From Candidatus Gastranaerophilales bacterium (GTDB lineage: Bacteria; Cyanobacteriota; Vampirovibrionia; Gastranaerophilales; Gastranaerophilaceae), in assembly GCA_944325865.1 (NCBI GenBank), contig CALVBS010000003.1, positions 11,223 through 75,222 of the forward strand: 64,000 bases of DNA, given 5' to 3'. The notes beneath the pieces were generated by a model. That model saw only the letters and a program-made list of their open reading frames with translations, made no database searches and was not told where the DNA came from. The position numbers were made by a program, and so were the translations under genes. Below, piece after piece: positions 43,973-61,875 of this stretch (position 1 is the first letter of the stretch; each line of letters begins with the position of its first letter).

Positions 43973-44131
43973 TTGAATCCCCTTCTATCTATAGCTCTAT
44001 TATACCTGAAACAGATTTCGATACAATATAAAGATAAATGGTTTTATTGCGATATAAATCCTTTTTTACTTCTATAGTTTTTTATTTTTTACCGGGTATT
44101 ATTTAATAAGTTGGGAAAAGAGATATGAAAT

Positions 44132-45079: not shown

Positions 45080-45092
45080 TCAGAATAATGAA

Positions 45093-45899
45093 TTATTTTT
45101 CACAGTATGCGACGAGTTTTTCATAATCCGAATATAGACCGACTTCTGTCAATTCTTCAATATAAGGGTTTTTTAGTGAATATAATGTAACATTCTTATA
45201 ATACATTTTTAGAATGAAATAAAGCTCACCTGCATTGAATTCTTCAACATGCCATTTATATGGAGGAGTAATAAGGTTTTGGATATCTTTGTAACGATCT
45301 CTATTCGGTGTGCTTATAACGGCCTTGTCTGCAAGTAGAGAAAATTCATCCAGAAAGGATTTATAGTCTTGAATATGTTCAATAACATCAACGGTTATCG
45401 CTAAATCAAATTTTCCGTATTTATTTAATAATGTAGGGATGTTATCTGTACAATAAATTACATTATCAAGTTTTCTATTTTCTAAAACCCATTGTGTCGA
45501 TTTTGGGTCAATTTCACTTGCAACAAATTTAATATCAGGATGTTTCTGTGCGTTATTCCATTCAAAGGTTCCTACACCAGAACCGATATTGACTACATTT
45601 TTAACATTGTGTAAGAAATATTTTCCTATTGTTTTATTTGCAATAACCATGTCTTCATACTCAAATGGATTGTCCATTTCTATTTGTTTTTGCTTATCTT
45701 CTATGTTACTAATCCAAATTTCAGGATTCTCAACATATTGTATCCCTTCAGCAGGTATAGCCGCACGATTATAAATACTTTTAATTGGTTTAGAAATTTT
45801 CTTTTTAATTCTGAAGCCGGCTATTGTGATAACTTTAAATTTTTTGCCATTAAGGTAGATATTACCTACTGAGAAAATGTTTTGCAATAATTTTTTCAT
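45093..45899 (-). CDS. Class I SAM-dependent methyltransferase with N-terminal IFSxxN module
   Basis: VVNIGSGVGTFE and DLAITVDVIEHI motifs. ATG45899 (MKKLLQNIFSVGN) follows AGGAAA; the track starts at 45926. Confidence 0.8.
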   Translation of the reverse strand: MKKLLQNIFSVGNIYLNGKKFKVITIAGFRIKKKISKPIKSIYNRAAIPAEGIQYVENPEIWISNIEDKQKQIEMDNPFEYEDMVIANKTIGKYFLHNVKNVVNIGSGVGTFEWNNAQKHPDIKFVASEIDPKSTQWVLENRKLDNVIYCTDNIPTLLNKYGKFDLAITVDVIEHIQDYKSFLDEFSLLADKAVISTPNRDRYKDIQNLITPPYKWHVEEFNAGELYFILKMYYKNVTLYSLKNPYIEELTEVGLYSDYEKLVAYCEK

Positions 45900-45961
45900 A
45901 AATTTTTTCCTTTCTAAATTTTTCATACAAAAAGTCAGAGTACTTTAGTACTCTGACTAAG
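45826..45961 (-). repeat. Direct repeat copy 1 (136 nt): terminator hairpin, RBS and first ~25 codons
   Basis: Matches 46946..47080 with one substitution and one 1-nt indel in a T-run, by hand alignment. Confidence 0.9.
45929..45958 (-). terminator. Terminator-like hairpin between the ATP-grasp and methyltransferase genes
   Basis: AGTCAGAGTACT / AGTACTCTGACT stem followed by T5 on the minus strand. Confidence 0.6.
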
Positions 45962-45969
45962 CAACCTTT

Positions 45970-47019
45970 TTATAATTTTGTTTGTAAAGAATTTTCTTTC
46001 TGAATTCTATCAGAGAGACAGTCTTGCCCTCCCTCCCCATTCTGAGATGCAGGCAGGGTAAGCATTTCACCGAGTTTGTAATCCCATTCTTCAGGTTCAA
46101 ATTTTTCCAATCCTGCCCAATGGAAAAATGTTAATTCAGAAAATTTAAAACTATCTTTAGTTTTATAAAAATCACATCTCACAAATGGGAAACTTTTACA
46201 CACATTTTGAGCAAATTGTAACATTTTATCAAAATATACAGGCTTTTCAATTAATTTATCAAAATTCGGATAATGATCAACTATCGGCAGTTTTTCCCAA
46301 TTAAGACTGTAAAAGTTTGCACTTGTATTTGGTGTTTTGTCATCAAATACTATCCAAAACATTTCAGGCTTGCCGTTAAAACAGAAAAATTCCAATTTAT
46401 ATTCAAAATCCAACAACTCTTCACAAACAATCATTGGTTTGATGTCTCTATACCCTGTTTCGAATGAATAATAATAATGATTAGATTCTTTTTTAAGCCA
46501 AGATTCCATCATATTTTTTACTTTTTCAAATTCTAAAGACTTCTTATCTTTAACGATTAATTGTAAACCTGAACCCCAGTTTGATTTTAAAACAAATTGC
46601 TCAGGCAATGAAGAAAAATCAATTTCTTCTGGTCTATGATAAATCCCATATTGTTTTACAAGATGGACCGGAGCCGCCCCTGTCTTTTCAAGAAAATAAT
46701 CTCTAGCTCTAACTTTGTCAGCACATACAGACATTAGGCTGTTTTCATAATTTAATTTTAACCAATTTAACTTTTCGTTAAAAGTTTTTGGGTTATCAAG
46801 GTTTGGTTTATAGCCAATAGCTTGTTCAAATTGATGTTCAATAATATATTTTTTATCTTTAAGTGAAAGATTCGGGTCGTATTTTCTGGCGAGAAGTTTT
46901 TCAAGTTTAGATTTCTTGTGGATTTTTATTTTCAGTCCAGCAACAGTGATAACTTTAAATTTTTTGCCATTACGGTAGATATTACCTACTGAGAAAATGT
47001 TTTGCAATAATTTTTTCAT
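45970..47019 (-). CDS. TupA-like ATP-grasp amidoligase-family protein with N-terminal IFSxxN module
   Basis: KPNLDNPKTFNEKLNWLKL...FVLKSNWGSG...FSELTFFHWAG pattern typical of the TupA-like ATP-grasp family. ATG47019 preferred over the track's TTG47049. Confidence 0.8.
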   Translation of the reverse strand: MKKLLQNIFSVGNIYRNGKKFKVITVAGLKIKIHKKSKLEKLLARKYDPNLSLKDKKYIIEHQFEQAIGYKPNLDNPKTFNEKLNWLKLNYENSLMSVCADKVRARDYFLEKTGAAPVHLVKQYGIYHRPEEIDFSSLPEQFVLKSNWGSGLQLIVKDKKSLEFEKVKNMMESWLKKESNHYYYSFETGYRDIKPMIVCEELLDFEYKLEFFCFNGKPEMFWIVFDDKTPNTSANFYSLNWEKLPIVDHYPNFDKLIEKPVYFDKMLQFAQNVCKSFPFVRCDFYKTKDSFKFSELTFFHWAGLEKFEPEEWDYKLGEMLTLPASQNGEGGQDCLSDRIQKENSLQTKL

Positions 47020-47080
47020 AAATTTTTCCTTTCTAAATTTTTCATACAAAAAGTCAGAGTACTTTAGTACTCTGACTAAG
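46946..47080 (-). repeat. Direct repeat copy 2 (135 nt)
   Basis: See copy 1. The spacing between copies is 1120 bp. Confidence 0.9.
47048..47077 (-). terminator. Terminator-like hairpin (identical to 45929..45958)
   Basis: Same 12-bp stem plus T-run, 36 nt after the stop of 47113..48987. Confidence 0.6.
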
Positions 47081-47112
47081 CCGCTTTTCTATAACGTTGT
47101 TTGTTAAACTTA

Positions 47113-48987
47113 TTAGTTCTGAATGCTGTCAGGGACAGAACCTTGCCCCCCCCCCCCATTCTGAGATGCAGGCAGGGTAAGCATTTCCCCGAGTTTATAA
47201 TCCCACTCTACCGGCTCAAAAGCTTCAAGTCCATTAAAATGATAAAATGTTATTTCACCAAAATAAATTTTATTACCAATTAAAAATAAATCAATTCTGG
47301 CATGAAGAAAATCTTTTGATAGCTTTTTTGCTACATTAAGCATTTCTTGAAAACATTCCGGTTTTGGTATTTTTTTGTTACTAACATCATAATGTTGTTT
47401 AAATGGAAGTAAATTAAAATCTAAATCATAAAAATTGAATTTTAAGTCTTTATGCCTGTCAATTCCCACAAACAAAAAGCTCGGATTTCCATTGTTGCAA
47501 AATATTTTATAATCCAATAAGTTCCCGTCTATTTGCTCAATATATTTTTCAGCAATAATTTTAGGCTGAATATTCTTATAACACCATTCAAACCCGAAAT
47601 AGTAATGATTAGAATGCGGCTTCAACCATTCTTTTAATTTAGCTTTAGCTTCTTTAATATCAAGTTTTGATTTATCTTTAACAATAATATTCTGCCCGCT
47701 GCCCCAGTTAACTTTTAGTACAAATTGCTCCGGAAGTTTGTCAAAATCAATTTCGTCAGGGGAATCCCAGACGCCTAAAAGCGGGATTAAGTATTCTTCC
47801 CCGATTTTTTCTTTGACATAATCTCTGACAAGATATTTATCAGCACATTTGGTCAAAAGCGGGTCTTCGTTATAAAGTTTGAGCCATTGAAGTTTTTCGT
47901 TGAAACTTTTCGGATTATCAATATTTGGTTTATACCCGACAGCCTGCTCAAACTGGTGCTCAATAATATATTTTTTATCATCGAGTGAAAGATTCGGATC
48001 GTATTTTCTTGCTAAAAGTTTTTCAAGTTTAGATTTCTTGTGGATTTTGATTTTCACTCCAGCAAGCGTAATAACTTTGTATTTTTTGAATTTGTGAGTT
48101 TGATTTTTTATTGAAAATAGGTTTTGCACTAATTCTTTTCTGGCGTTTTTATTCAGCTCTTTATATAATTCCTTGAAATCATTATAAAAAGGTGTGAGTT
48201 TCGTGTATTTTTTATAGTCATCAAAATGTTTAACATTTTTGTTATTCCAAGGTTTATATGGACTTGCCCAGTGTATAATTACAGGATTATTTTTATCCTT
48301 ATGGAATTTTGATAATGCCTTTTTGTTGTCCCATACAGCAGGTCTAAAATTGAATTTTTGATTAAGATATAATATCTTATCATACAGAGTAATATTAAAA
48401 ATACACTGGTCGTAATATTTATATATGCCTCTATATTTCTTTTCTTTTTCAAATAACAAATCTTCAATATGATTTTGTCGCCATAATTTTAGATTCGCAA
48501 GCATTACTCCGGTATTACAATATTTATAATTATCCGGAATGTCTAAGCTTCTTTGATAATAGCTAGCACCTTCTTCTGTAGAAGGACAGCATGCCATATA
48601 ATAATTATCAATATTTGTGTTCCAAAGTTCGGATAAACTGTCCACAATAATTAAATCTGCATCCATAAAAATTATTTTATCAATATCTTTTAATATAGAA
48701 GATATCATCATTCGATAATTTGTAACCATAGGAATATCAGCTCTGGTATCATTTCTTTGTTCATGATGGAGTTTTTTGTTTTGTGCATAATATTTAATTT
48801 CAAAATCTTTAATGTGCTTTAATTGAGCTAATTTATTTTTACTTTCTTGAGTAATACTTCCGTCATTAATAATATGGAAAGTAAAAGTTTCGTCCGCTTT
48901 ACTATTTTTTAATATTGATGCTATTACAACAGAACAGTATTTTACATATCCATCATCAATTACAAATCCGATATCTATATTTGTCAT
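47113..48987 (-). CDS. Bifunctional GT8 glycosyltransferase / TupA-like ATP-grasp protein joined by an IFSxKN linker module
   Basis: 624 aa. The N-terminal half is GT8-like (IGFVIDDGYV, FMDADLIIV DxD, NTGVMLANL). The C-terminal half is paralogous to 45970..47019. Confidence 0.85.
   Translation of the reverse strand: MTNIDIGFVIDDGYVKYCSVVIASILKNSKADETFTFHIINDGSITQESKNKLAQLKHIKDFEIKYYAQNKKLHHEQRNDTRADIPMVTNYRMMISSILKDIDKIIFMDADLIIVDSLSELWNTNIDNYYMACCPSTEEGASYYQRSLDIPDNYKYCNTGVMLANLKLWRQNHIEDLLFEKEKKYRGIYKYYDQCIFNITLYDKILYLNQKFNFRPAVWDNKKALSKFHKDKNNPVIIHWASPYKPWNNKNVKHFDDYKKYTKLTPFYNDFKELYKELNKNARKELVQNLFSIKNQTHKFKKYKVITLAGVKIKIHKKSKLEKLLARKYDPNLSLDDKKYIIEHQFEQAVGYKPNIDNPKSFNEKLQWLKLYNEDPLLTKCADKYLVRDYVKEKIGEEYLIPLLGVWDSPDEIDFDKLPEQFVLKVNWGSGQNIIVKDKSKLDIKEAKAKLKEWLKPHSNHYYFGFEWCYKNIQPKIIAEKYIEQIDGNLLDYKIFCNNGNPSFLFVGIDRHKDLKFNFYDLDFNLLPFKQHYDVSNKKIPKPECFQEMLNVAKKLSKDFLHARIDLFLIGNKIYFGEITFYHFNGLEAFEPVEWDYKLGEMLTLPASQNGGGGQGSVPDSIQN
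47146..47157 (-). repeat. Homopolymeric C12 (G12 on the coding strand) near the 3' end of the GT8-ATP-grasp gene
   Basis: Counted directly. It encodes GGGG, 10 codons before the stop. Confidence 0.95.
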
Positions 48988-49021
48988 TAGACACTTTCCT
49001 CCATAATCTGTGTTTATTGAA

Positions 49022-50122
49022 TTATTCGTTATGTTCAGCTATTAACATTGTTTCATGCAAAAATTTAGTATTATGACATTTTATAATTTTGAATTTATAT
49101 CCTAAATTCCAGCTTTCAATCATTGGCTTTATTTCAAACAGGTCATGCATATTATGGTAGATTGAGATTAACAGTACAGGTCTTTGCGTACAGATTGTCT
49201 CTTTTGCCCCTTCCAGAAGTTGAGGTTCAAAGCCTTCTACATCAGTTTTTATTAATCCAATATTTAAATTATTATTTTTTACATATTCATCTAAAGTGAT
49301 AATGTTTATTTCTTCTTTTTGCATTCCTTCTCTATTACTTTCTAAGATTGTTGAGCCGCTGTCGTGAACATTTATATGAACTGTTTCTGTTTTATTTCCA
49401 ACGGCATATTTTACAGGAATTACATTTTGTAAATTATTCATTTGGATAGTTTTTAAAAGCATATTATAATTTTCATTTACAGGTTCAAAAGCGTGAATTT
49501 TAACTCCATTTTGAGTAATTTCTGAAAATATACAGGCAGAATCTCCTATAAAAGCATCGGCATCAATTATGTCGTTATTTTTTATAAGTTCTATACTTTT
49601 TTCTGATAATTTGTCTATTCCATGTTTAAAATAAAAGGCTTCACCTCCACATTTTAAAGGTAGTAGATATTTACCATGTTTCCAAATATTAGGTGCAAGC
49701 ATAATAATCTTTGAATCAAAGTTATCATATTGTTTTAGAATTTCTTCCTTTTCTTTTTCTGTAAATAAATCAATAGTTTTTTTATGCAAATTATTCTTTA
49801 TAAGATTAAATCTGTAGATAATCCGGTCTATAACTTCAATACTTTCAGCATCCAAATTTTTTATTAATGCAAAATATTTTTCTTTTAAATCTTTAGGTAA
49901 TTCTTCTTTAGAAAAATCTAGCCAATATTTTTCAAAATGATGTTTATATAATGTTAGATTTTCTTTTTCTATAGAATTATCAAATAAGATATTCTTATTA
50001 TTTAGATTCATTATTTTATGTTTAACCTTTAAGCCGCAAAGTCTAAGGACTTTGAATTTTTTATTATTAACAGTTTCATTTTTAACTGAAAAAATGCTGT
50101 CAATGAATTGTTTTATTTGCAT
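49022..50122 (-). CDS. FkbM-family methyltransferase with N-terminal IFSxKN module
   Basis: 366 aa. IIDADAFIGDSACIFSE, HAFEPV.ENY, LIKTDVEGFE, ISIYH blocks. Confidence 0.8.
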   Translation of the reverse strand: MQIKQFIDSIFSVKNETVNNKKFKVLRLCGLKVKHKIMNLNNKNILFDNSIEKENLTLYKHHFEKYWLDFSKEELPKDLKEKYFALIKNLDAESIEVIDRIIYRFNLIKNNLHKKTIDLFTEKEKEEILKQYDNFDSKIIMLAPNIWKHGKYLLPLKCGGEAFYFKHGIDKLSEKSIELIKNNDIIDADAFIGDSACIFSEITQNGVKIHAFEPVNENYNMLLKTIQMNNLQNVIPVKYAVGNKTETVHINVHDSGSTILESNREGMQKEEINIITLDEYVKNNNLNIGLIKTDVEGFEPQLLEGAKETICTQRPVLLISIYHNMHDLFEIKPMIESWNLGYKFKIIKCHNTKFLHETMLIAEHNE

Positions 50123-50166
50123 TTGTTCTCCTTTCAGAATAATAGTTTACATACTTGATTAGTTTT

Positions 50167-51126
50167 TTATTTCCGTAGTTTTTCTTGCTCTCTCCATTCT
50201 ATAAATTTTCTAATTCCTTCTTCAAAAGTTGTTTGCGGGTTATAGTTTAACAGGAGTCTGGCTTTGGTTATGTCTGCGACTGTTTTATCAACATCCCCAG
50301 GCTGCATAGGCAGGCTTTCGATTTTTGCCTTTTTACCAAGAACTTTTTCAATAGTCGCTATCATTTCATTTAAAGTTATAGGCGAACCGCCTCCAAGATT
50401 GATTATCTCATATGGCGTTTTGTCATAGTTTATTGCTGACATAATTCCGTTTACTATATCGTCAATGTATGTATAGTCACGCATTGTGGTTCCGTCACCA
50501 TAGACCGGAATCGGTTTATCCTGTTCTATTAATTCTATAAATTTTCTTATTGCTAGATCCGGTCTTTGCCGCGGTCCGTAAACCGTAAAAAATCTTAAAC
50601 ACAACGCTTGCATATCATAAAGTTTTGAATATGTATATAAGAATTGTTCACACGCTGATTTCGTTGCTGCATATGGAGAAATTGGCTCCGTAACTTTTAA
50701 ATCTTCAGTGAACTTTTCTGCTTTGCAGTTTCCGTAAACAGAACTGGAAGACGCAAACACAATCTTTTTAACATTATGTTCCTTCATTAATTCAAGAATA
50801 TTTATTGTTCCGGCAATATTTGATTGAACAAATAATTTAGGATTACTGATAGAGGCTCTGACGCCTGCACTGGCCGCAATATGAACAACTACATCAATGG
50901 AATATTCATTAAAAGCTTGTTCCGCAATATGTTTATCACAAATATCACCAATAAAAAGTTTAAAGTTAGGGTTATTAATATATGGATTAATATTTTTCCA
51001 CTTTAACTCAGGTGGATAGTAATCATTCATATTATCGATAAGAATTGTTTTATGATTTTGAGCGAGTAATTTATCTGTTAACGACGAACCGATAAACCCC
51101 GCCCCGCCTGTGATTAGTATTTGCAT
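50167..51126 (-). CDS. NAD-dependent sugar-nucleotide epimerase (UDP-glucuronate 4-epimerase-like SDR)
   Basis: 319 aa. [29 protein letters not shown]. Confidence 0.85.
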   Translation of the reverse strand: MQILITGGAGFIGSSLTDKLLAQNHKTILIDNMNDYYPPELKWKNINPYINNPNFKLFIGDICDKHIAEQAFNEYSIDVVVHIAASAGVRASISNPKLFVQSNIAGTINILELMKEHNVKKIVFASSSSVYGNCKAEKFTEDLKVTEPISPYAATKSACEQFLYTYSKLYDMQALCLRFFTVYGPRQRPDLAIRKFIELIEQDKPIPVYGDGTTMRDYTYIDDIVNGIMSAINYDKTPYEIINLGGGSPITLNEMIATIEKVLGKKAKIESLPMQPGDVDKTVADITKARLLLNYNPQTTFEEGIRKFIEWREQEKLRK

Positions 51127-53231
51127 TATCTTTTCCCTTTATGAACAAATGTACAAAAATTTTTATAATCAACTCTGGTATTAGGAAAATATATGACATC
51201 TTCTGTTAAAATATTATGTTTCCATAATAAGTAAGGAAGTGAAAGTTGATCTCTCTTTGTATAATTTTCAACCATATACCACCAGTCTTCCATAAGTGAA
51301 ATAATTTCTGGTTTGTTATGCTGACGGTATATAATATTATTTTCAGGCATTCCGTAATTTTTAGGAAAACCGTTGTCTTGTAAAAGTTTTAAATGAGCCT
51401 GCATAATTTCAGGTTTATCAACTTTTTCCCATAGAACCCATTCAAATTCTTTATATAGACATATTGTACTTGCATGCTCAGCAAGCATAATGCTTTTGTG
51501 TTTTTTATAATTATCAATAATTTTAAATAATTTATCTGTTAAAATATTAATATTTGCATCAATATAGATACTTTCATCATATTCGGAAAGTATCAAGTGC
51601 GGATTAATTTTATGCCAGCGGTTATTTCTAGTGTCATCATGTTCAGTGAACTGTAGCGGTCTGATTTTCCAAATACCGAATTGTTTTTGATTAATAAGGT
51701 TTTGATTGTCTGTAAAACATACATAGTCCCAGTCAAAATTGATAAAAGTATAACCTTTGATTTCTTCCAAATCATCATAATTGCCAGTAATACATGTATA
51801 TACTACTTTATTGGACGGTTTATTCTTTCTAATATTATTATATTCAATAATATCATCTTCACAAAATTCATATTTATTGCATAAAAAAGCATCCTTGTAT
51901 CTATAGCGTCCTTCGTTTAAAAAATAAAGTAAAGGATTTTCTTTAATTTGTGGATATCTTTCTATGTAGTTGTTTCCATCGAAAATAAATGAAGGATTAA
52001 TATTTTCTTTCCAACCCTTAATAAGGTAATGTTGAAGTACTCCTAATTTATCAAGATTTAAACTTGGACATTGCCTGTTATAATATTTGTAATCAATTAA
52101 TCCAGAATCTCTAAGTTGATTAATTTCATAGTTATTTAGTAATGATTTATTATCCACTCCTCGTTTTGTCATATTTTTATTTCTTCTGATTTTAAGTTTC
52201 AAACCTAATATAGATACAACTTTATGAGTATGATTATTTTTAATAGAAAATAGTTTTTCAAGAAAACTGTTTTTCAAGAAAACTGTTTTACCTAAGGAGT
52301 CAAAATATTTTACATCCAGTTTTTTCACTGCATTAATAAACTTTGATTTGTTTAATATCCCTAAGTCTAATGTATTTAGGTCATAAGAAAGTTTTTCTAG
52401 TACCTGTTTTTGGTTTTTACCATTTTGAAAATTATAATCTTCAAAGAATAAGTATTTTAAGTTTGAATGAAACATATCATAATGTTTTTGTGTAAGATTA
52501 TTTTTGTTATAGTATTTTATTAATGATGGAATTAATACAATATTATCAAAAATTTTTGTACTAGTTTTCAGCAACCTACTTCCCATAATTGAATCTGATC
52601 GTTGAACATAGTTGTATAAGTATTGAGGAATATAATATCCATATTTAGCCCAAACTGCATATTGTAACCAAAAAGCAAAGTCATCATGTCCAGAGTTTGT
52701 TAGAAATTTAATTTCATGAGCATCAATGATAGATTTTTTATATAATTTGCTCCAAGTTGTAACAACAGTTTTGCTAATAACATAATCTGTAACAATGATT
52801 TTACCAATAAAATTAATATTATAATATTGAGTAATTTTTGATTTAATTGCATCATTATTATACTCAAAAATAGGATTAGCACTCCAACATACATAGTCAA
52901 CATTGTTATTAAGCATTGCTTCATATGCAAGTTTAAATGTATTTGTGTCTATCCAGTCGTCACCATCAACAAATGTTAGATATTCTGCAGATACTTCATT
53001 TAAGCCCGCATTCCATGCAGAAGATAATCCTCCGTTTTCTTTATTTATGATTTTTATTCGTTTATCTTTTTGGGCATATTCTTCTAAAATAGATAAAGAA
53101 TTATCGGTTGAGCCATCATTGATACAAATAATTTCAATATCACTAAATGTTTGGTTAATAACACTATCAAGACATTTTACTAAATATTTTTCAATGTTAT
53201 ACACAGGAATAATTACTGAAATTTTAGCCAC
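51126..53231 (-). CDS. Bifunctional GT2 glycosyltransferase / DUF616-like putative glycosyltransferase joined by an IFSxKN linker module
   Basis: 701 aa. N-terminal ISVIIPVYN...INDGSTDNS...DGDD. C-terminal VVYTCITGNYDDL...CFTDN...SIYIDANI...RDQLSLPYLLWK, a DUF616-type pattern as I recall it. Confidence 0.8.
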   Translation of the reverse strand: MAKISVIIPVYNIEKYLVKCLDSVINQTFSDIEIICINDGSTDNSLSILEEYAQKDKRIKIINKENGGLSSAWNAGLNEVSAEYLTFVDGDDWIDTNTFKLAYEAMLNNNVDYVCWSANPIFEYNNDAIKSKITQYYNINFIGKIIVTDYVISKTVVTTWSKLYKKSIIDAHEIKFLTNSGHDDFAFWLQYAVWAKYGYYIPQYLYNYVQRSDSIMGSRLLKTSTKIFDNIVLIPSLIKYYNKNNLTQKHYDMFHSNLKYLFFEDYNFQNGKNQKQVLEKLSYDLNTLDLGILNKSKFINAVKKLDVKYFDSLGKTVFLKNSFLEKLFSIKNNHTHKVVSILGLKLKIRRNKNMTKRGVDNKSLLNNYEINQLRDSGLIDYKYYNRQCPSLNLDKLGVLQHYLIKGWKENINPSFIFDGNNYIERYPQIKENPLLYFLNEGRYRYKDAFLCNKYEFCEDDIIEYNNIRKNKPSNKVVYTCITGNYDDLEEIKGYTFINFDWDYVCFTDNQNLINQKQFGIWKIRPLQFTEHDDTRNNRWHKINPHLILSEYDESIYIDANINILTDKLFKIIDNYKKHKSIMLAEHASTICLYKEFEWVLWEKVDKPEIMQAHLKLLQDNGFPKNYGMPENNIIYRQHNKPEIISLMEDWWYMVENYTKRDQLSLPYLLWKHNILTEDVIYFPNTRVDYKNFCTFVHKGKR
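52254..52285 (-). repeat. Exact 16-nt tandem duplication (2 copies) within coding sequence
   Basis: TTTTTCAAGAAAACTG repeated at 52254-52269 and 52270-52285 (plus strand). Confidence 0.9.
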
Positions 53232-54303
53232 AATAATTCTCCGTATTTTTTTTACGTATTTTTATTTTTGTACCCAATATACAAATAACTTTATGATTAT
53301 TATCATTTTTTAGTGAGAATATTTTTTCAATGAATGAATATTTAGGTTTTATTTTTAAAAGTTTCAGAGCTAGTTTCGTATCACCATTTTTAATAGCTTT
53401 AATTAATGTTATATCGTCAAAGAATGTAATATTTAATAGTTGTTTTTGTAGTATTGAAAACATCTGGATTTTGTTAGAATTGTCTAAAAAAGACCCCCAA
53501 TATTTTATTATATTGATATATATTTCTTTATATTTTTTTGTAATTTCTTTGGGGATAATAGGCGTTTTTAACATAAACAATGTTACATCATTATATGCAT
53601 ATAAAAAGTCAAAATCATTTGTTTTATCTTTTTTATATAAATTTTCCATCAACGAGTTTGGATTAGATATATTATAATTGTATAATATTTCATTAAGACC
53701 ATAATATGAAGAACTTATTGCTAGATATTTTAAAATAAAACTGGCATCTTCATGTTTATAACTAATAGGAAAACGAATCTGGAATTTTTCAATAAATGAC
53801 TTTTTAAATATTTTATTCCATAAAATAACATTGATCATATTAATCGTCTTATTATTAATTTTATTATATCCAATAAGTTTTAAATTATGATAATTTAGCT
53901 CTTTCGATTGTCTTATTGTTGTAATCTGTTTATCTTTTAAATACTTACAATCACACATAACAAGATCAACGTTATACGAAAGTATTGCATTGATCATTTT
54001 TTGACACATATCTGGTTCATAATAATCATCAGAATCACAGAACATTAAGAATTGACCAGTGGCATTATCTAATCCATTATTTCTGGCAGTGGCAGCTCCT
54101 GAATTCGTTTGATTTATAACAATAATTCTCTTATCTTTGGTAGCATATTCATTTAATATATTTAGAGAATTATCAGTTGAACCATCATTAATGCAAAGTA
54201 TTTCAATATTTTTATATGTTTGATTAATTAAACTATCTAAACATCTTACTAAATATTTTTCAGTATTATATATTGGAACTATTATTGATATAAGATTATC
54301 CAT
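53224..54303 (-). CDS. GT2 glycosyltransferase with C-terminal IFSxKN module
   Basis: 359 aa. ISIIVPIYN, INDGSTDNS, CDSDD. The tail is IEKIFSLKNDNNHKVICILGTKIKIRKK. Confidence 0.85.
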   Translation of the reverse strand: MDNLISIIVPIYNTEKYLVRCLDSLINQTYKNIEILCINDGSTDNSLNILNEYATKDKRIIVINQTNSGAATARNNGLDNATGQFLMFCDSDDYYEPDMCQKMINAILSYNVDLVMCDCKYLKDKQITTIRQSKELNYHNLKLIGYNKINNKTINMINVILWNKIFKKSFIEKFQIRFPISYKHEDASFILKYLAISSSYYGLNEILYNYNISNPNSLMENLYKKDKTNDFDFLYAYNDVTLFMLKTPIIPKEITKKYKEIYINIIKYWGSFLDNSNKIQMFSILQKQLLNITFFDDITLIKAIKNGDTKLALKLLKIKPKYSFIEKIFSLKNDNNHKVICILGTKIKIRKKNTENYCG

Positions 54304-54317
54304 TATTTCTCCCGTTA

Positions 54318-55313
54318 TTATTTTGATATTACAAATTGTTTACCACATAGAGTTAGTATTTTTAATTTTTCTCCAAACAATTCACTGTTTTTTAGTGAAA
54401 ATATTTTTTCAAAATTATTTTTACAGCCTATTTTGTAAAGCTTATATTTATTAAATATTTCTTTTGAAAAAGTTTTTTTTATGTCATTTTCAAATTTTTT
54501 TTTGTGTTTTTCTGGAACATAAACAAATTGTCTGCCTAAAGTAAGTGCAGCATAGTCAATGAAATACTTGTTTAATTCCGGTAAGAGATTTTGTTCTTGT
54601 AAAAAATCTTTTACCAAGTTTACAATGTTTATGACTTTGAGTGTTTCTAATGTTTCTTTTTTACAGGCAGAACCTTTACAAATTCTATAGTTATATAATG
54701 GTTTATTGATAAATATAATTTTATTTGCAAAAATTCGGCTTTTTATTGTAAATATATGATCTTGTGCCAATTTGGTATCAGCAAATTTTATATTGTTATT
54801 TTTAATAAAGGCACTTTCATATAATTTGTTCCATACTGATAAATTTGTACTTTTAAAAATATAATCCGGGTTTTCTTTCCAGTTAAATATAGTATCTTCT
54901 TGAAGTAGAATGGCATTAGGTCTTATTTTTGATTCTTTAGAATATTCATAATATTGGTTATATATGGCTTCAACGATATCAGAATCATAGGATTTAGCCT
55001 TAGAATACATTTCCTCATACATATTCAGTTCAACCCAATCATCCGGATCTACAAAACCTATATATTCACCGCTTGACAGTTCTATTCCTCTGTTACGGGC
55101 AACGCCCTGACCCTGGTTTTCCTGACTTATTACTTTTATCCGCTCATCTTTTGACGCATATTCTTCTAATATTGATAACGAACCATCGGTTGAACCATCA
55201 TTGATACAGATTATTTCTATATCGGCTAAAGTTTGATTAATAAGACTATCAAGACATTGTCTTAAATACTTTTCGACATTATATACCGGAATAATAACCG
55301 ATACCTTTGGCAT
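54318..55313 (-). CDS. GT2 glycosyltransferase with C-terminal IFSxKN module
   Basis: 331 aa. VSVIIPVYNVEKYL, INDGSTDGS, VDPDD. Confidence 0.9.
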   Translation of the reverse strand: MPKVSVIIPVYNVEKYLRQCLDSLINQTLADIEIICINDGSTDGSLSILEEYASKDERIKVISQENQGQGVARNRGIELSSGEYIGFVDPDDWVELNMYEEMYSKAKSYDSDIVEAIYNQYYEYSKESKIRPNAILLQEDTIFNWKENPDYIFKSTNLSVWNKLYESAFIKNNNIKFADTKLAQDHIFTIKSRIFANKIIFINKPLYNYRICKGSACKKETLETLKVINIVNLVKDFLQEQNLLPELNKYFIDYAALTLGRQFVYVPEKHKKKFENDIKKTFSKEIFNKYKLYKIGCKNNFEKIFSLKNSELFGEKLKILTLCGKQFVISK

Positions 55314-55507
55314 ACTTCTTTCTCCTGATTCCTGTATTGGAACTCAACCACTTTTAAACATTAGATTCCAGCTGTTTCGATTAATGTTCAAAGCGTTGAA
55401 TCATCATCACTTTTTTAGTCTAATACAAATAAACTATATTTGATATAATTGTAAAGTTTAGTGTAGTTTATTTTTTCTTTTATTCCGCGTGTTTTCCGTT
55501 TGTCAAT

Positions 55508-55542
55508 TACCCGCTTGGGCACTTTATTTATACCCGGTCGGG
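55508..55542. promoter_or_regulatory. GC-rich direct repeat TACCCG(C/G)T(T/C)GGG x2 in the divergent intergenic region
   Basis: TACCCGCTTGGG (55508-55519) and TACCCGGTCGGG (55531-55542), 23 nt apart, in otherwise AT-rich DNA. Confidence 0.3.
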
Positions 55543-55647
55543 TGATTGTTTAAGAAATTTTTTTTAACCAGAATAATGTTTAAGTTGATTTTCAAATTCT
55601 TAATAAAATTTGAAGTAAAGCTTGAAAAATATTATTTGGAGATGGTT

Positions 55648-56649
55648 ATGGCTAAAGTATCGGTTATAGTTCCGGTATATAATGTAGAAAAATATTTAAG
55701 ACAATGTCTTGATAGTCTTGTTAATCAAACATTAACTGATATAGAAATAATCTGTATAAATGACGGCTCAACAGATGGTTCATTAGCAATATTAGAAGAC
55801 TATGCATCAAAAGATAAAAGAATTCGACTAATTAGTCAGGAAAATCAAGGTCAGGGAGTTGCCCGTAACAGAGGAATAGAGTTGTCAACAGGCGAATATC
55901 TTGGCTTCGTGGATCCGGATGACTGGATAGAGTTGAATATGTATGAGGAAATGTATTCTAAGGCTAAGCTGTCGGATGCTATGATTGTAGAGGCTATGTA
56001 TAGCGAGTTTTTCGAAAGCTCTGGAAAAACCAAGATTCGCAAAAGTCCTGTAACTCTTCCGGAAAATCAGGTTTTTACGTGGAAAATTCATAAGGATTAC
56101 TTATTTAAAAGTTCAATTCTTGCAGTTTGGAATAAAATTTATAAAAAAACTTTTGTTAATCAGCACAAAATTAGGTTTGCAGAGGCAAAACTGGCTGAAG
56201 ATCATATTTTCACTTTGAAAAGCAAAGTCCTTGCAGAGAAAATCAATTTTATCAATAAACCTTATTATAATTATCGGGTACGTCGGGATTCCGCGGTTAA
56301 CAGTATCTCACCTGAAACATTGAGGGTTATTGATATATTGAAAGATGTAAATGCTTTCTTTAACGAACAAGGTGTGCGTAACAAATATAATCGAAAAGAG
56401 TTCGATTCTTATTTTGAATTTACACTTGCAAGGCAATATGCTTCTGTGCCTGAGGGGTGCAAAAGTCTTTATGAACAAAAATGCAGAGCTTTTCTAACAG
56501 ATAAACAGTATAAAGAATATCAAAAATTTAAATTTGGGAAATTCAAACCTCTGGAACGTATTTTCTCATTGAAAAATGAAACTTGTTTTGGAGTAAGATA
56601 TAAGGTTTTAGTGTTATTGGGCTGTAAAATAAAATTTAAGCCTGTATAA
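55648..56649 (+). CDS. GT2 glycosyltransferase with C-terminal IFSxKN module (mirror paralog of 54318..55313)
   Basis: MAKVSVIVPVYNVEKYL... aligns from residue 1 with the divergent paralog. ATG55648 follows GGAG. The track's 55546 extension is unsupported. Confidence 0.9.
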   Translation: MAKVSVIVPVYNVEKYLRQCLDSLVNQTLTDIEIICINDGSTDGSLAILEDYASKDKRIRLISQENQGQGVARNRGIELSTGEYLGFVDPDDWIELNMYEEMYSKAKLSDAMIVEAMYSEFFESSGKTKIRKSPVTLPENQVFTWKIHKDYLFKSSILAVWNKIYKKTFVNQHKIRFAEAKLAEDHIFTLKSKVLAEKINFINKPYYNYRVRRDSAVNSISPETLRVIDILKDVNAFFNEQGVRNKYNRKEFDSYFEFTLARQYASVPEGCKSLYEQKCRAFLTDKQYKEYQKFKFGKFKPLERIFSLKNETCFGVRYKVLVLLGCKIKFKPV

Positions 56650-56667
56650 AGAGGAGACTGATTAGTA

Positions 56668-57810
56668 GTGGATAAAGTTATATCAATTATAGTGCCGGTT
56701 TATAATGCCGAAAATTATTTATATAGATGTCTCAGCAGTTTGCGTGCACAAACATTTGGTTTTATTGAGATTATATGCGTAAACGACGGCTCTACCGATC
56801 ACAGTGCAGAAATTTTAGAACGATTTGCTTTGTTAGATTCCAGAATAAAGGTTATATCTCAGGTAAATTCCGGTCCGGCCTCTGCAAGAAATAAAGGCCT
56901 TGAAGCCGCTACCGGTAAATACGTTATGTTTTGTGATGCAGATGATTCATTTGAACCCGAAATGTGTGAAAAAATGTACAATGCGATGCTTATACATAAT
57001 GTAGATTTAGTTATGTGTGATTGTAATATTAATACAACAGTTTCGGCTAATTTCCGTAAGGAAAAGGATATTTTATATCATAAACTTAAACTCGCAGGAT
57101 ACTGTTTTATAGACGCAAAGATATATAATTTGATAAACGTAGTTTTATGGAATAAAATCTTAAAAATATCTTTAATTAAAAAATATAATATCAAGTTTCC
57201 TGATGGTTATGAACATGATGATGCGTGTTTTATCCTGAAATATCTTGCAGTTAGTACATTGTACTACGGGCTTGATGAACCGTTGTATAATTATAATATT
57301 TGCAATCCTGAGTCACTTATGGCTAAGGTGTATAAAAGAAATAATTACGGTAAGAAACTTGATTTCCTTTATGCTTATTATGACGTGATGTTGTTTGTCC
57401 TACATAATCCTGTCAGAAAAGAAATTTTAGAGGGGTTTAAGCATCTGTATGTTAATCAACTGGGTTATTTCGGGCAATTCCTAACAAGTCGGGAACAGTT
57501 CGCAATGCTTGCTGTTTTGCATGGCCAGCTAAAAGATATTGATTTTTTCGAAAAAAATAAATTTATAGATACTGTAAGAGAGGGAAATCTAAAAAAAGCA
57601 CAGGTTTATTTTAATCGTAAAACAAAGTTGACATTTCTCCAACAGATATTTTCATTAACCAATAAATCAGACAAAATAAAACTTTTAACGATTTTAGGTG
57701 TCAGTATTCCACTGCCTCGTAACGCTAAAAGACTTGAGTTGTCAAAAATGAACAGGATAAGCCTTAAGCAATGTAAAACAGGTAATTTAAATCAGGTTAT
57801 AAAATGTTGA
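56668..57810 (+). CDS. GT2 glycosyltransferase with near-C-terminal IFSxxN module (mirror paralog of 53224..54303)
   Basis: 380 aa, GTG start. ISIIVPVYN, VNDGSTDHS, CDADD. Confidence 0.85.
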   Translation: MDKVISIIVPVYNAENYLYRCLSSLRAQTFGFIEIICVNDGSTDHSAEILERFALLDSRIKVISQVNSGPASARNKGLEAATGKYVMFCDADDSFEPEMCEKMYNAMLIHNVDLVMCDCNINTTVSANFRKEKDILYHKLKLAGYCFIDAKIYNLINVVLWNKILKISLIKKYNIKFPDGYEHDDACFILKYLAVSTLYYGLDEPLYNYNICNPESLMAKVYKRNNYGKKLDFLYAYYDVMLFVLHNPVRKEILEGFKHLYVNQLGYFGQFLTSREQFAMLAVLHGQLKDIDFFEKNKFIDTVREGNLKKAQVYFNRKTKLTFLQQIFSLTNKSDKIKLLTILGVSIPLPRNAKRLELSKMNRISLKQCKTGNLNQVIKC

Positions 57811-57860
57811 AAATATAAAAATTATAAATAATGTATGCGGGTAAAAAAAAGAAAGGATTT

Positions 57861-58910
57861 ATGATGGAAACAATTAACATCGGATTTACTGTTACAGACA
57901 GTTATGCACAACATTTGGCAGCAACAATGTCTTCCATATTAAGTAATACATCCAAAGATACGAAATTCAATTTTTATGTAATGAATGAGGGAGATATTAC
58001 TTTTGAAACAAAAAGAAGAATTAGCCTGTTAAAAAATATTCATGATTTTAATATTAAATACATAACTGTAAAAAAAGAAGATTTCAGAGAATATTCTCCC
58101 GGAGTACATATGTCAACGAATTACAGGTTGAAAGTCGCTTCTCTCATTCCTGAAGCAGATAAAATATTATTTTTGGATGTTGATTTAATTGTGTTAGATG
58201 ATATTGCAAATTTGTGGAACACAGATATAAGTGATTATTATATGGCAGCGGTTCCGGATCCATGTCAAATATATCAATTTCAGGTTGTAAGGTCAAAATT
58301 TATAGATAAATTCCCTACGTTAATGTATAATACCGGTGTTATATTATTAAATCTGAAAAAGTGGAGAGAGGATGATATAGAAGAGAAACTTTTGCATGGA
58401 ATAAAATGGTTTTCTGCAAACTATGATCAATGCTGGCCTGATCAATCAACATTAAATATGGTTTTAAAGGATAAGATTAAACAGTTGGATGGCAGGTGGA
58501 ATGCTTGTCCGCTTTTGGGATATATTCAACAACCTCCAGGTGCATATGACAGTATTGAGCAAAGAGACTTGATTTTCGCGAATCCTGCAATAATACATTA
58601 CGCTGCTGACCAAAAATATAAAGCCTGGCTTGATTCAAGTCTTCCTTGGGCAGATGTTTACTGGGAATATCTTAGAAAAACTCCATATTATGAAACCGGT
58701 ATTTTGAATATGGTAAAAAATACTTATAAATATGAGCTGTCAGATATTCATGGAAGTCTCGGGCTTTTGAAACAGCAAAATGTTATTAATTTTAAATATA
58801 AGAAATACAGGGTATTGAAAAATTTAACATTTGGTAAAACTGCAAAACGTTATCGGGAAAAGTGTTCCCGTTTTAGAGCTCTTGTTAATGAAATACAGGC
58901 AATATCTTAG
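57861..58910 (+). CDS. GT8 glycosyltransferase
   Basis: INIGFTVTDSYAQH, FLDVDLIVLDD, NTGVILLNL. The start is ATG57861 or ATG57864, after GAAAGGA. Confidence 0.8.
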   Translation: MMETINIGFTVTDSYAQHLAATMSSILSNTSKDTKFNFYVMNEGDITFETKRRISLLKNIHDFNIKYITVKKEDFREYSPGVHMSTNYRLKVASLIPEADKILFLDVDLIVLDDIANLWNTDISDYYMAAVPDPCQIYQFQVVRSKFIDKFPTLMYNTGVILLNLKKWREDDIEEKLLHGIKWFSANYDQCWPDQSTLNMVLKDKIKQLDGRWNACPLLGYIQQPPGAYDSIEQRDLIFANPAIIHYAADQKYKAWLDSSLPWADVYWEYLRKTPYYETGILNMVKNTYKYELSDIHGSLGLLKQQNVINFKYKKYRVLKNLTFGKTAKRYREKCSRFRALVNEIQAIS

Positions 58911-58959
58911 ATAATTGTGAAAATAAATTATTTATGAAAAATTTTATGGAGTTTCAAAT

Positions 58960-60927
58960 ATGAAAAAAATAAAATCTATTTTTGGCAAGGATTGTATAAA
59001 TGTAGTGTTTGCCTGTGATAAAAACTATGCACCCTGCATGACGGTTGCGGTAAAGTCTTTAATTGAAAATACAGGAATAAATAATAATTACGACATCGTT
59101 ATCCTTGAAGATGGGCTTAATTTTGCGTATAAAAAACTTATTACAAGTTTTACAAAAGATTATGATAATATATCGATAAGGTTTTTTAATATAAAAAAAT
59201 ATATTGAAAGATATGATAATTATTTATTTACTAATGATTATTTTAGTCTTGCCGCTTATTTCAGAATTTTGATACCTGAGGTTTTTCTCGACTATGAAAA
59301 AGTTATATATCTGGATTCTGATGTAATGGTTATGAATGATGTCGCTCTGCTGTACAACACGGAGCTCGGGGAAAATCTCGCCGGGGTAACAAGAGATGTA
59401 GGCACAATTATGCTTTACTGGGGAAAAGATGATATAAAAGATTACATGGATAATAATTTAAAAATACCTGATATGAAAAAATATTTTCAAAACGGTGTTA
59501 TGTTAATGAATTTAGAAAAAATGAGGGAAGAGAATTTTTTTAAAAAGTTTATTAATACTGCAAAATCAATAACCCCGCCGTTGTATTTTGCAGATCAGGA
59601 TATATTTAATATTATATGTTTTAACAGAGTTAAGTATATTAATCAGGTATGGGATGTTGTTACCAATACTGATTGGATTGCCGAACATTTTCCGTCTCAG
59701 GTTTCAGACAGAATTCATAATGAATATAAAAACAACTTGATGTTTGCTAATATTATACATTACGTATCGCAGAACTGGAAAGAGATGCATAAACCTTATA
59801 CTGATATTTATTGGGGTTATGTTTCAAAACTTCCGAAATTTGTACGATATGACTTACAGAAAAAAATAATAAAGGATAGATATGATATTTCAGAAAAAGA
59901 AAAAGTTAAGAAATTGTTTTCTTTAAATTTGAAAACAAACATTGCATATATTTTCGGAAAGAAAATAAGAGATAAGAGTGAGAAATATTATTATGATAAT
60001 ATTCATGAACAGGCTTTTTTGCAGGATTTTCATAAATATTTTGCCCGTAAAGATTTTCAAGATAAATATAGTGCATTAATTAGGAATCTTGATGAAGAGA
60101 GTATTAAAACTATAGATACGACCATAAAGCAGATAAACAGGACAAAACGTTTATCAGATGGAGTTTCCAGCGTTGATTTGTATTCACAATATGAAAAGTC
60201 AATGTTTAAAAAACTTGATAAAGAATTCTTTTCTAAAACGCTTACTGTTAATGAAAATTTGTTCAGATATAAAAATTATTTTCTTCCTGCAAATTACTTT
60301 GGACCGAGTGTATTTTACTATAAACATTGTATAGAATACATTAATAACATAGATGCTATTAAAGGAAAATGCATCATTGATGCCGGTGCAAGTGTCGGGG
60401 ACTCCGCTTTAATCTTTTCTGAGCTTGATTGTGATAGAATCTATTCGTTTGAACCAAATAATGAAACGTTTGACTTACTGAATTCAACGATTAAAATAAA
60501 TATGTTGAGTAAGGTTGTACCGGTATGTTTAGCTTTAGGAAATGACTCAACTGTTAAAAAATTACAGCTTTGCGGATCAGGTTCTACTTTACTTGAAGAT
60601 GAACATTCACAAGATAATTGTGACGTGCAGGATGCATATGTTGTCAGACTTGATGATTATGTAAGACAGCATAAGTTGAATGTCGGGTTGATAAAAACGG
60701 ATTTGGAAGGGTTTGAACAGGAGTTTTTACAAGGGGCTGAACACACTATCAAAACACAACGTCCGATTTTATTGATAAGTTTATACCATAAAGCTTCGGA
60801 CTATTTTGAAATAAAACCAATGATAGAGAGTTGGAATCTGGGGTATAAATTTAAAATAGTAAAACCTTTGATATATAATGTGGTTAATGCAGAAACAATG
60901 CTTGTAGCAGAAGTAAATGAGGAATAA
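58960..60927 (+). CDS. Bifunctional GT8 glycosyltransferase / FkbM-family methyltransferase
   Basis: 655 aa. N-terminal GT8 ([31 protein letters not shown]). C-terminal FkbM paralogous to 49022..50122 ([34 protein letters not shown]). Confidence 0.85.
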
Positions 60928-60930
60928 GTA

Positions 60931-61875
60931 ATGAAGAGAATTTTAGTAACAGGCGGTGCAGGCTTTATAGGAAGCCATTTATGTGAAAGACTGTTAAATG
61001 AAGGTAATGACGTAATCTGTCTGGACAATTTTTTTACAGGTTCAAAAGATAATATAAGACATCTATTGTCAAATGATCATTTCGAACTGGTCCGTCATGA
61101 CATAACAAAAGAATATTTTGCCGAAGTTGATCAGATATATAATATGGCATGCCCTGCAAGTCCTCCTCATTATCAATATAACGCAATTAAAACAATTAAA
61201 ACCTCAATTTTGGGTGTAACCCATATGCTTGGTCTTGCAAAACGCTGTAAGGCAACAATTTTGCAGGCTTCTACAAGTGAAGTTTATGGAGATCCGAAGG
61301 TACATCCGCAGCGTGAAGATTACTGGGGTAATGTTAATCCTATAGGTGTCAGAAGCTGCTATGATGAAGGTAAGCGTTGTGCTGAAACACTAATGATGGA
61401 TTATCACAGGCAAAACGGTGTAGATACTCGAATTATTCGTATTTTTAATACGTATGGTCCGAATATGGATCCGAATGATGGCAGGGTTGTTTCTAACTTT
61501 ATTGTTCAGGCTCTGCAGGGGCATGATATTACAATTTACGGTGACGGTTCACAAACCCGTTCTTTCTGTTATGTATCGGATCTTGTTGACGGTATCGTAA
61601 AAATGATGAATAATCCTCAAAAATTTATCGGTCCTGTAAATTTGGGTAATCCATCAGAAAGAACAATTCTTGATTTTGCAAAACTTATTATTGAAATGAC
61701 AAATTCAAATTCCAAAATAGTTTACAGACCTCTGCCTGGTGATGACCCTACTCAGAGAAAACCTGATATTTCTCTTGCGAAAAAAGAACTCGGCTGGGAG
61801 CCTAAAGTTGATATCAGAGAAGGTTTGCAAAAAACTATTGAGTATTTTGACAGAAAAATAAAGGAGAATAAATAA
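60931..61875 (+). CDS. uxs: UDP-glucuronate decarboxylase (UDP-xylose synthase)
   Basis: 314 aa. [52 protein letters not shown]. Confidence 0.93.

Follow-up and report, generated by a model that had tools for sequence, protein, structure and literature searches.

Only for individual cases is it known how soluble O-antigen, capsule and lipooligosaccharide enzymes are recruited to their lipid-linked intermediate and to one another; mostly, amphipathic helices peculiar to each case are involved. C-terminal amphipathic membrane segments are known on TagA, WecG, LgtC, CstII, MinD and FtsA (the membrane-targeting sequence, MTS), and removal of the amphipathic tail of a peripheral glycosyltransferase (GT) solubilises the enzyme. 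Here we describe a basic segment of about 30 residues, hereafter the tag, that recurs at different positions on soluble enzymes of a glycan-assembly island in a Candidatus Gastranaerophilales bacterium. The window that was analysed is a stretch of 64,000 nucleotides from contig CALVBS010000003.1 (positions 11,223 to 75,222; assembly GCA_944325865.1). The strain-variable island occupies positions 45093..60927 of the window, with genes on both strands, and encodes 11 soluble enzymes and one epimerase. We found that the tag is a real and apparently undescribed domain family, carried by many kinds of glycan enzymes in related gut bacteria.

The tag resembles the amphipathic tails of TagA, WecG and others in being a short basic and hydrophobic appendage outside the catalytic fold of enzymes that lack transmembrane (TM) helices and act on lipid-linked acceptors. 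However, those tails are alpha-helical, terminal, family-specific and poorly conserved, whereas the tag is a predicted beta-meander, is 90-98% invariant at seven positions, occurs at any position in a protein and accompanies more than 15 unrelated enzyme families. In place of an amphipathic alpha-helix, AlphaFold2 gave three strands after a helix of 5-6 residues in two contexts, and 34 of 157 copies were internal rather than at an extreme terminus, in addition to tandem arrays. Dockerins are likewise small portable modules on many unrelated carbohydrate-active enzymes of one organism, but they are extracellular, Ca-binding, duplicated EF-hand-like helical domains of ∼70 residues with a cohesin partner, whereas the tag consists of ∼30 residues of beta structure with one helix. 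No dockerin or EF-hand profile of Pfam matched the tags or their enzymes, and no cognate receptor was found in the window. The tagged enzymes are presumably cytoplasmic, since they use nucleotide sugars, S-adenosylmethionine (SAM) or ATP.

Docking domains of polyketide synthases and nonribosomal peptide synthetases (PKS/NRPS), including those of the beta-hairpin type, are short elements that organise assembly-line enzymes; they form cognate C-/N-terminal pairs with codes, whereas the tags are of a single type, carry no locus code and are also internal and tandem. The tails of Golgi glycosyltransferases, read by GOLPH3/Vps74, are a common short basic and hydrophobic signal that fixes the residence of many glycosyltransferases, but they are eukaryotic linear motifs beside a TM anchor with a known adaptor, and their relation to the tag is conceptual only. 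TarP and TarS are the nearest solved structures to the model of one tagged GT2 enzyme, GT2a (Foldseek E values 1e-17 to 1e-19), and have a small C-terminal appendage behind a GT-A domain and a helical region; these appendages are family-specific, not portable, and without sequence similarity to the tag. Extracellular cell-wall-binding repeats (choline-binding, SLH, LysM, GW) were rejected, as Pfam gave no matches to them. The tag lacks the defining features of each known family considered and would belong to the class of enzyme-localisation appendages.

The reality of the repeat was assessed with two profiles. A profile of ten window segments, run against a six-frame translation of the window, matched exactly those ten open reading frames (ORFs) with E values of 1e-17 to 1e-6; the next-best ORF reached 0.019, and there was no match outside 45.0-61.0 kb, that is, in the other 48 kb. 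Because this test is circular, a second profile was built from external copies only (189 copies, all from genomes of other species). It recovered nine window copies at 18-45 bits (independent E values 1e-4 to 4e-13), while the best unrelated ORF scored 10 bits. Seven of the nine are canonical, and those of GT2b and GT2d are partly decayed. The copies are as follows, with bit scores of the external profile unless stated otherwise.

45798..45893, minus strand: tag at the N-terminus of a class I methyltransferase (gene 45093-45926, start probably 45899; 27.6 bits; KLLQNIFSVGNIYLNGKKFKVITIAGFRIKKK)
46912..47013, minus strand: tag at the N-terminus of a stand-alone TupA-like ATP-grasp enzyme, assigned by Pfam (gene 45970-47049, start probably 47019; 34.4 bits)
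48034..48135, minus strand: tag in the linker of a GT8-ATP-grasp fusion, residues 285-318 (gene 47113-48987; 33.8 bits)
50015..50104, minus strand: tag at the N-terminus of an FkbM methyltransferase, residues 7-36 (gene 49022-50122; 31.4 bits)
52179..52262, minus strand: tag in the linker of a GT2-TOD1/MUCI70 (DUF616) enzyme, residues 324-351 (gene 51126-53231; 43.4 bits)
53248..53331, minus strand: tag at the C-terminus of GT2a, residues 325-352 (gene 53224-54303; 45.3 bits)
54321..54413, minus strand: tag at the C-terminus of GT2b, strand beta3 shortened by the stop codon (gene 54318-55313; 18.2 bits)
56551..56646, plus strand: tag at the C-terminus of GT2c (gene 55648-56649; 33.3 bits)
57637..57723, plus strand: tag near the C-terminus of GT2d (gene 56668-57810; 23.3 bits, alignment stopping at ILGVSI)
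59905..59976, plus strand: doubtful decayed copy in the linker of GT8-FkbM (gene 58960-60927; 24.8 bits with the self-inclusive profile only)

A sequence-only reading of this DNA had counted 10-11 tagged enzymes. Nine of these stand by the external profile. The segment in the GT8-FkbM linker, which that profile did not match, is probably a decayed copy because its position corresponds to that of the FkbM N-terminal tag: it lies directly N-terminal to the FkbM module, as does the strong tag of the FkbM paralogue. The eleventh, claimed at the end of the GT8 encoded at 57831-58910, had no support from the external profile. The decay in GT2d affects beta3, which contains prolines (GVSIPLPRN). In the GT8-ATP-grasp fusion, Pfam places GT8 at residues 7-249 and ATP-grasp at 364-603, with the tag between them. 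Gene callers put the starts of both the methyltransferase and the stand-alone ATP-grasp enzyme at MKKLLQNIFS, so these two tags are truly N-terminal.

The tag consensus is LxxIFS[VIL]KN-x(2-8)-[HY]K[VI][IL]T[IL]LG[IVL]K[IF]K[FIL]K[RK]K. Across 384 unique copies, the most conserved positions are F6 (98%), S7 (97%), N10 (93%), K17 (97%), G23 (98%), K25 (90%) and K27 (90%). Lysine is preferred over arginine 20- to 120-fold at positions 17, 25 and 27, and 3.6-fold at position 29, and hydrophobic and basic residues strictly alternate in beta3. Changes in loop length are always in frame. At the DNA level, the window copies are only 45-82% identical, and different codons are often used for identical residues. 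The conserved unit is the peptide and not a DNA repeat, and selection acts at the protein level, because seven residues remain 90-98% invariant despite low DNA identity and variable synonymous sites. An in-frame mobile DNA repeat, of the kind of a miniature inverted-repeat transposable element, was rejected on account of the same nucleotide identities and differing synonymous codons. No DNA-level repeat features were present at the tags, and the sole tag pair of high identity (82-99%) lies in a local duplication that extends over the intergenic region upstream.

The segment had been put forward as not belonging to any named domain, and the searches agree. Pfam and NCBIfam have no curated family over it in any of the 11 island enzymes, and isolated tags run against Pfam at E≤10 returned noise only. 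The tag profile had no match among PDB sequences at E≤10, and Foldseek with the model of a 42-residue tag gave a best E value of 0.76, to generic beta-meanders. In the literature, neither sequence strings nor searches by concept led to anything relevant to the tag.

An exhaustive HMMER search of 1.84 billion proteins (E≤1e-3), with the ten window segments as query, uncovered 524 tagged protein cluster representatives, from which catalytic partners were tabulated; a search for homologous proteins with the tag profile gave 42 matches, short fragments only. Among 98 tagged representatives of at least 190 residues, 42 Pfam families were matched. The partners include GT2 (45 members), GT8 (26), DUF4422 (8), RgpF (5), FkbM (4), ATPgrasp_TupA (3), the pyruvyl transferases PS_pyruv_trans (3), GT1/GT4 (2) and GT29 (2), and, with one member each, GT-D, Capsule_synth, GT92, GT11, Gly_transf_sug, Caps_synth, Methyltransf_11 and Methyltransf_31. 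Radical SAM enzymes are further carriers. In 151 complete tagged ORFs from species-representative genomes, 78 of the 157 copies are C-terminal, 45 N-terminal and 34 internal. Many two-domain proteins have one tag behind each catalytic module, as in P0054 (GT2-tag-GT8-tag), a relative of the window GT2b at 90% identity. Tandem arrays also occur, with four copies at a period of ∼41 residues in P0114 and two in several other proteins. Residues ∼420-590 of P0114, which hold the four-copy array, match Pfam DUF3098 at 24.5 bits (cut-off 25; E 2e-5), a sub-threshold match that is probably compositional (K/I-rich).

These data bear out the proposal of an independent, portable segment, which is specific to glycan enzymes and is found with more than 15 Pfam families, at both termini and in linkers, once per catalytic module and in tandem. 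The accompanying claim of five unrelated folds overcounts the window, where GT2 and GT8 share the GT-A fold and Methyltransf_23 and FkbM the class I methyltransferase fold; in other genomes that number is exceeded. On two long contigs of other metagenome-assembled genomes (MAGs), 56- and 66-residue ORFs consist of essentially the tag only (L125 5001-5171 and L126 5001-5201), and lie directly upstream of an FkbM gene and of a GT8-radical SAM gene, respectively. Such ORFs are parts of split genes or else tag peptides that stand on their own. In a MAG recovered via a tagged GT2a homologue, a fused ABC_membrane+ABC_tran exporter, of the MsbA/PglK type by Pfam, lies within a cluster of five tagged enzymes (L124 7388-9226). 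This hints that the glycans of such loci may be flipped as lipid-linked oligosaccharides by an ATP-binding cassette (ABC) flippase.

AlphaFold2 models indicate how the tag may fold. In full-length GT2a (74-sequence alignment, predicted local distance difference test score, pLDDT, of 91), the tag forms a helix at residues 324-328 and strands at 329-334, 337-342 and 345-350, with pLDDT of 68-80. The isolated 42-residue tag of GT2-DUF616 (51-sequence alignment) gave a helix at 7-12 and strands at 13-17, 21-26 and 29-34, with a core pLDDT of 85-89. As the same elements appear alone and within GT2a, the tag is predicted to fold autonomously, as a mini-domain of ∼30 residues with a short amphipathic helix and a three-stranded antiparallel beta-meander. 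It had been pictured as a short helix plus a Lys-faced beta-hairpin; the helix and the lysine-rich face were retained in the models, and the two-stranded hairpin gave way to a three-stranded meander. The faces of the sheet were assigned from the predicted strand boundaries (two-residue turns), standard hairpin registry and the conservation table. One face would be hydrophobic (F6, I8, N10 / K17, I19, I21 / I24, I26, F28) and partly capped by helix residues F1, L2 and I5. The other would be cationic (S7, K9 / H16, V18, T20 / K25, K27, K29), followed by a K/R tail.

The tags carry a net charge of +3 to +9 per ∼30 residues, compared with about 0 for the remainder of each enzyme. The view that no island enzyme has a TM helix was upheld, with a maximal 19-residue Kyte-Doolittle mean of ≤1.35 in 11/11 enzymes. 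In tagged loci generally, TM-like windows above 1.6 occur in 4.6% of tagged ORFs and 27% of other ORFs of the same loci, and windows above 2.0 in 0% and 16%, with a control set that includes unverified ORFs. The 76 single-domain GT2a homologues comprise 33 with a strict tag, ∼19 with looser basic hairpin tails and 24 with other tails. Their last 60 residues have a net charge of +9.4, compared with -0.15 per 60 residues in the body, and because all tail classes carry about +9, a strongly cationic tail is a conserved property of the family. Many GT2a homologues without a strict tag (among P0339-P0411) end in other strongly basic, hairpin-like tails, such as KYYLFGIKIYSKK (one named Lactobacillales) and, in a cluster of 781 sequences (P0400), LFSKxxLFNxSxKNxxLRxKLLGLRxLKLK. 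Cationic beta-hairpin tails of GT2 enzymes may form a much larger, undescribed class with the strict tag as one of its branches, the likeness being one of appearance and not an established homology.

Hosts were surveyed with a hand-made degenerate DNA pattern in one genome per GTDB species, which yielded at least 119 loci and is a sample, not a census. Among the matches listed, 75 of the 93 taxon-labelled loci belong to Gastranaerophilales, Melainabacteria or Vampirovibrio MAGs, from human, chicken, rabbit and ruminant guts. True tags were also found in MAGs whose bin labels, unverified, read Alpha- or Gammaproteobacteria, Muribaculaceae or Bacteroides, Clostridia, and Endomicrobium. The only cultured genus among the recovered hosts is Brachyspira, in which B. 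intermedia and B. murdochii have a divergent form (LEWIFSIKN..EKVITIFG); the B. murdochii locus has the tag on two GT2s, one radical SAM enzyme and one FkbM enzyme. A match in Lacinutrix was a chance DNA match, and the idea that the motif is typical of Campylobacter, Helicobacter or Fusobacterium was borne out by no retrieved sequence. Exact copies of island proteins are present in gut metagenome assemblies. In public records, a relative of the GT8 at 90% identity comes from Candidatus Scatousia excrementipullorum, a genus that we take to be a member of the Gastranaerophilales (Melainabacteria/Vampirovibrionia); a Scatousia contig is also among the degenerate-pattern matches. When the four-copy array was compared by tblastn with 72,556 plasmids and 50,697 phage records, no match was obtained.

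It is quite probable that the tag serves localisation or tethering of some kind. The reading that we favour, tentatively, is more specific: the tag may be a generic localisation signal for the anionic inner-membrane surface, the site of the lipid-linked acceptor. It would have been joined by recombination to nearly all soluble enzymes of lipid-linked surface-glycan synthesis in gut Melainabacteria and in a few further gut bacteria of low GC content. The lysine-rich face (K9, H16, K25, K27, K29 and the K/R tail) and exposed aliphatic side chains would bind the anionic cytoplasmic surface of the inner membrane, and membrane binding would keep each catalytic module near the undecaprenyl-linked acceptor. 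A single tag per catalytic domain would orient the domain, and tandem copies would add avidity.

The membrane is the binding target favoured by several lines of evidence taken together, namely the depletion of TM segments, the cationic tails, the lack of a locus code, the tandem copies and the occurrence in several phyla. Tags of the same locus share a mean identity of 0.534 and tags of different loci or genomes one of 0.537 (permutation p about 0.6), which speaks for one generic target rather than for docking codes specific to a pathway. The same lack of a locus-specific code would argue against ordered docking along an assembly line, as in PKS/NRPS systems. An extended surface, on which enzymes gain avidity or are oriented, is suggested by the tandem copies and by the presence of one tag per catalytic module, and tags in several phyla suggest that no lineage-specific partner is needed. 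Several points weigh against a simple membrane anchor. Near-invariance of F6, S7, N10, K17 and G23, with the preference for lysine over arginine, would be more typical of a precise fold or a defined interface, or of binding to a specific ligand or partner, whereas simple membrane-binding amphipathic segments usually tolerate wide sequence drift. In the AlphaFold2 registry, the lysines and the main hydrophobic stripe fall on opposite faces, so the predicted binding geometry is ambiguous, and the unverified control ORFs weaken the TM comparison. The present data do not separate membrane binding from self-association or from one common partner.

A related possibility, which we hold to be less probable though worth keeping in view, is a cytoplasmic bacterial counterpart of the dockerin or Golgi-retention principle, where tag-tag or tag-scaffold contacts gather the enzymes in a membrane-attached assembly that newcomers join by recombination at the tag. 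Self-association as such is unlikely. It would have the exposed hydrophobic faces (F6, I8, I19, I21, I24, I26, F28) pair, so that pathway enzymes form homo- or hetero-oligomers or a multivalent cluster that channels the glycan. About seven large hydrophobic residues on one face of the sheet are unlikely to be fully capped by a helix of 5-6 residues, the invariance of specific residues suits a defined interface, and tandem copies (four in P0114) with one tag per catalytic domain would give multivalency. TarP and TarS, which the full-length GT2a model resembles, oligomerise via C-terminal domains. That likeness is, however, one of the whole GT2a model and not a superposition of the TarP domain on the tag, and a charge of +6 to +9 per tag disfavours tag-tag contact unless screened by anionic lipid.

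Docking to one common protein partner, such as a scaffold, a flippase or ABC exporter, or an initiating transferase, appears distinctly improbable. Such docking would be comparable to that of dockerin on cohesin, or to the reading of Golgi glycosyltransferase tails by GOLPH3/Vps74. The same tag is found on every soluble pathway enzyme and not on TM proteins, the near-invariant F-S-x-K-N, [HY]K and G-x-K-x-K elements resemble a recognition surface, tags are interchangeable between loci, and the PglK/MsbA-like exporter adjoins one tagged cluster. However, no candidate partner was identified, and the window island is without any membrane protein; spread over several phyla would need co-transfer or a universally conserved partner, and tandem tags are unusual in 1:1 docking. 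Binding of the acceptor itself, with the cationic face and the conserved Ser, Asn, His and Lys holding the pyrophosphate of undecaprenyl pyrophosphate or an anionic (uronic-acid or phosphate) glycan, is very unlikely. It would lend each enzyme affinity for one shared substrate. This reading would suit the Lys-specific conservation with S7, N10 and H16 and an island that makes UDP-glucuronate and has TupA-type amide ligases acting on uronic acids, and tandem repeats fit the binding of a polymer. Yet tagged loci differ widely in glycan chemistry, Foldseek gave no structural analogue, and a 30-residue sheet makes a poor pocket.

The tag is also a frequent recombination junction, to judge from gene comparisons in and around the island. 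The 5' regions of the methyltransferase and ATP-grasp genes are ∼99% identical from ∼80 nt upstream of the start codon through the tag helix, strand 1 and the loop. The identity ends inside strand 2 (beta2) of the tag, and past this breakpoint the ATP-grasp gene matches instead its paralogue in the GT8-ATP-grasp fusion. The two genes encode unrelated enzymes, and both are preceded by the same near-identical duplication of ∼250 nt:

45730-45975, minus strand: copy ahead of the methyltransferase
46850-47115, minus strand: copy ahead of the ATP-grasp enzyme

The duplication takes in a terminator-like hairpin (AGTCAGAGTAC-TAAA-GTACTCTGACT, then T5), as well as the ribosome-binding region with the start codon and the tag's first two-thirds. 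The window GT2b provides a second case, as it has 331 residues and ends inside tag strand 3, while 669-residue relatives (P0054/P0059, ≥90% identity) run on into GT8 and a second tag. By this comparison, a catalytic module was gained or lost in the GT2b lineage, with the junction within the tag.

The mosaic breakpoint, the GT2b stop in beta3 and the orphan tag ORFs just upstream of enzyme genes could all be taken to mean that the tag is a passive junction, a stable linker or cap kept as a handy site of homologous recombination, or an in-frame mobile DNA repeat, without a binding role. We give this very little credence: DNA identity is low and synonymous sites are variable, seven positions hold the same residue in 90-98% of the 384 copies, which come from many genomes, loop lengths change in frame, and repeat features at the DNA level are absent. 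Owing to the strong conservation at the peptide level, recombination is not the tag's sole role. A secretion or sorting signal was rejected on account of the N-terminal, internal and tandem positions and the cytoplasmic co-substrates.

The island lies in a region of low GC content (24-33% at 45.0-61.0 kb), and the rest of the window holds housekeeping genes. Pfam matched each of the enzyme domains called in the sequence-only reading; the 11 enzymes have Methyltransf_23, ATPgrasp_TupA, GT8+ATPgrasp_TupA, FkbM (Methyltransf_21), GT2+TOD1_MUCI70 (DUF616), GT2 (four enzymes), GT8 and GT8+FkbM. The epimerase of the island and the sugar-nucleotide genes that flank it are as follows:

44132-45079: epimerase/reductase, flanking
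50167-51126: epimerase inside the island
60931-61875: UXS-like gene, flanking
61875-63200: UDP-glucose dehydrogenase, flanking

No flippase, polymerase, ABC exporter or initiating transferase is encoded in the 64-kb window, and no membrane protein of any sort in the island. Island content is variable: a related strain (L121, 1-4100) has other enzymes at the place of window positions 43388-47049. Instead of the Methyltransf_23 enzyme of the window, it has a TylF-type methyltransferase, tagged at the N-terminus, and a small hexapeptide acetyltransferase, whose gene is directly preceded upstream by a tag remnant (KNDKHKIFTILVIKISMKRRE).

Near its 3' end, the GT8-ATP-grasp gene contains a run of 12 C at window positions 47146-47157 (G12 on the coding minus strand), which codes for ...NGGGGQG.... 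Members of the 90% cluster of this enzyme have lengths of 614, 618, 624, 627 and 636 residues, and P0019 has the sequence ...NGGGGKVLSLTAF..., a frameshift at the C tract. In the stand-alone ATP-grasp paralogue, the corresponding tract is interrupted. The C-terminal tail of the fusion is likely phase-variable by slipped-strand mispairing.

For the soluble enzymes of lipid-linked glycan assembly, the finding means that one highly conserved module, predicted to fold autonomously, marks essentially all such enzymes across a bacterial lineage. If the tag were a mere cationic membrane anchor, it would be a new domain family and not a new principle. The tag profile offers a sequence handle by which Melainabacteria and related gut MAGs can be searched for glycan-tailoring enzymes of unknown family, and the tag is a compact, testable system for enzyme recruitment that could become a small portable targeting tag in glycoengineering. 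It also suggests a route by which glycan loci diversify, with catalytic modules swapped at a common junction, as the breakpoint inside the tag in the window shows.

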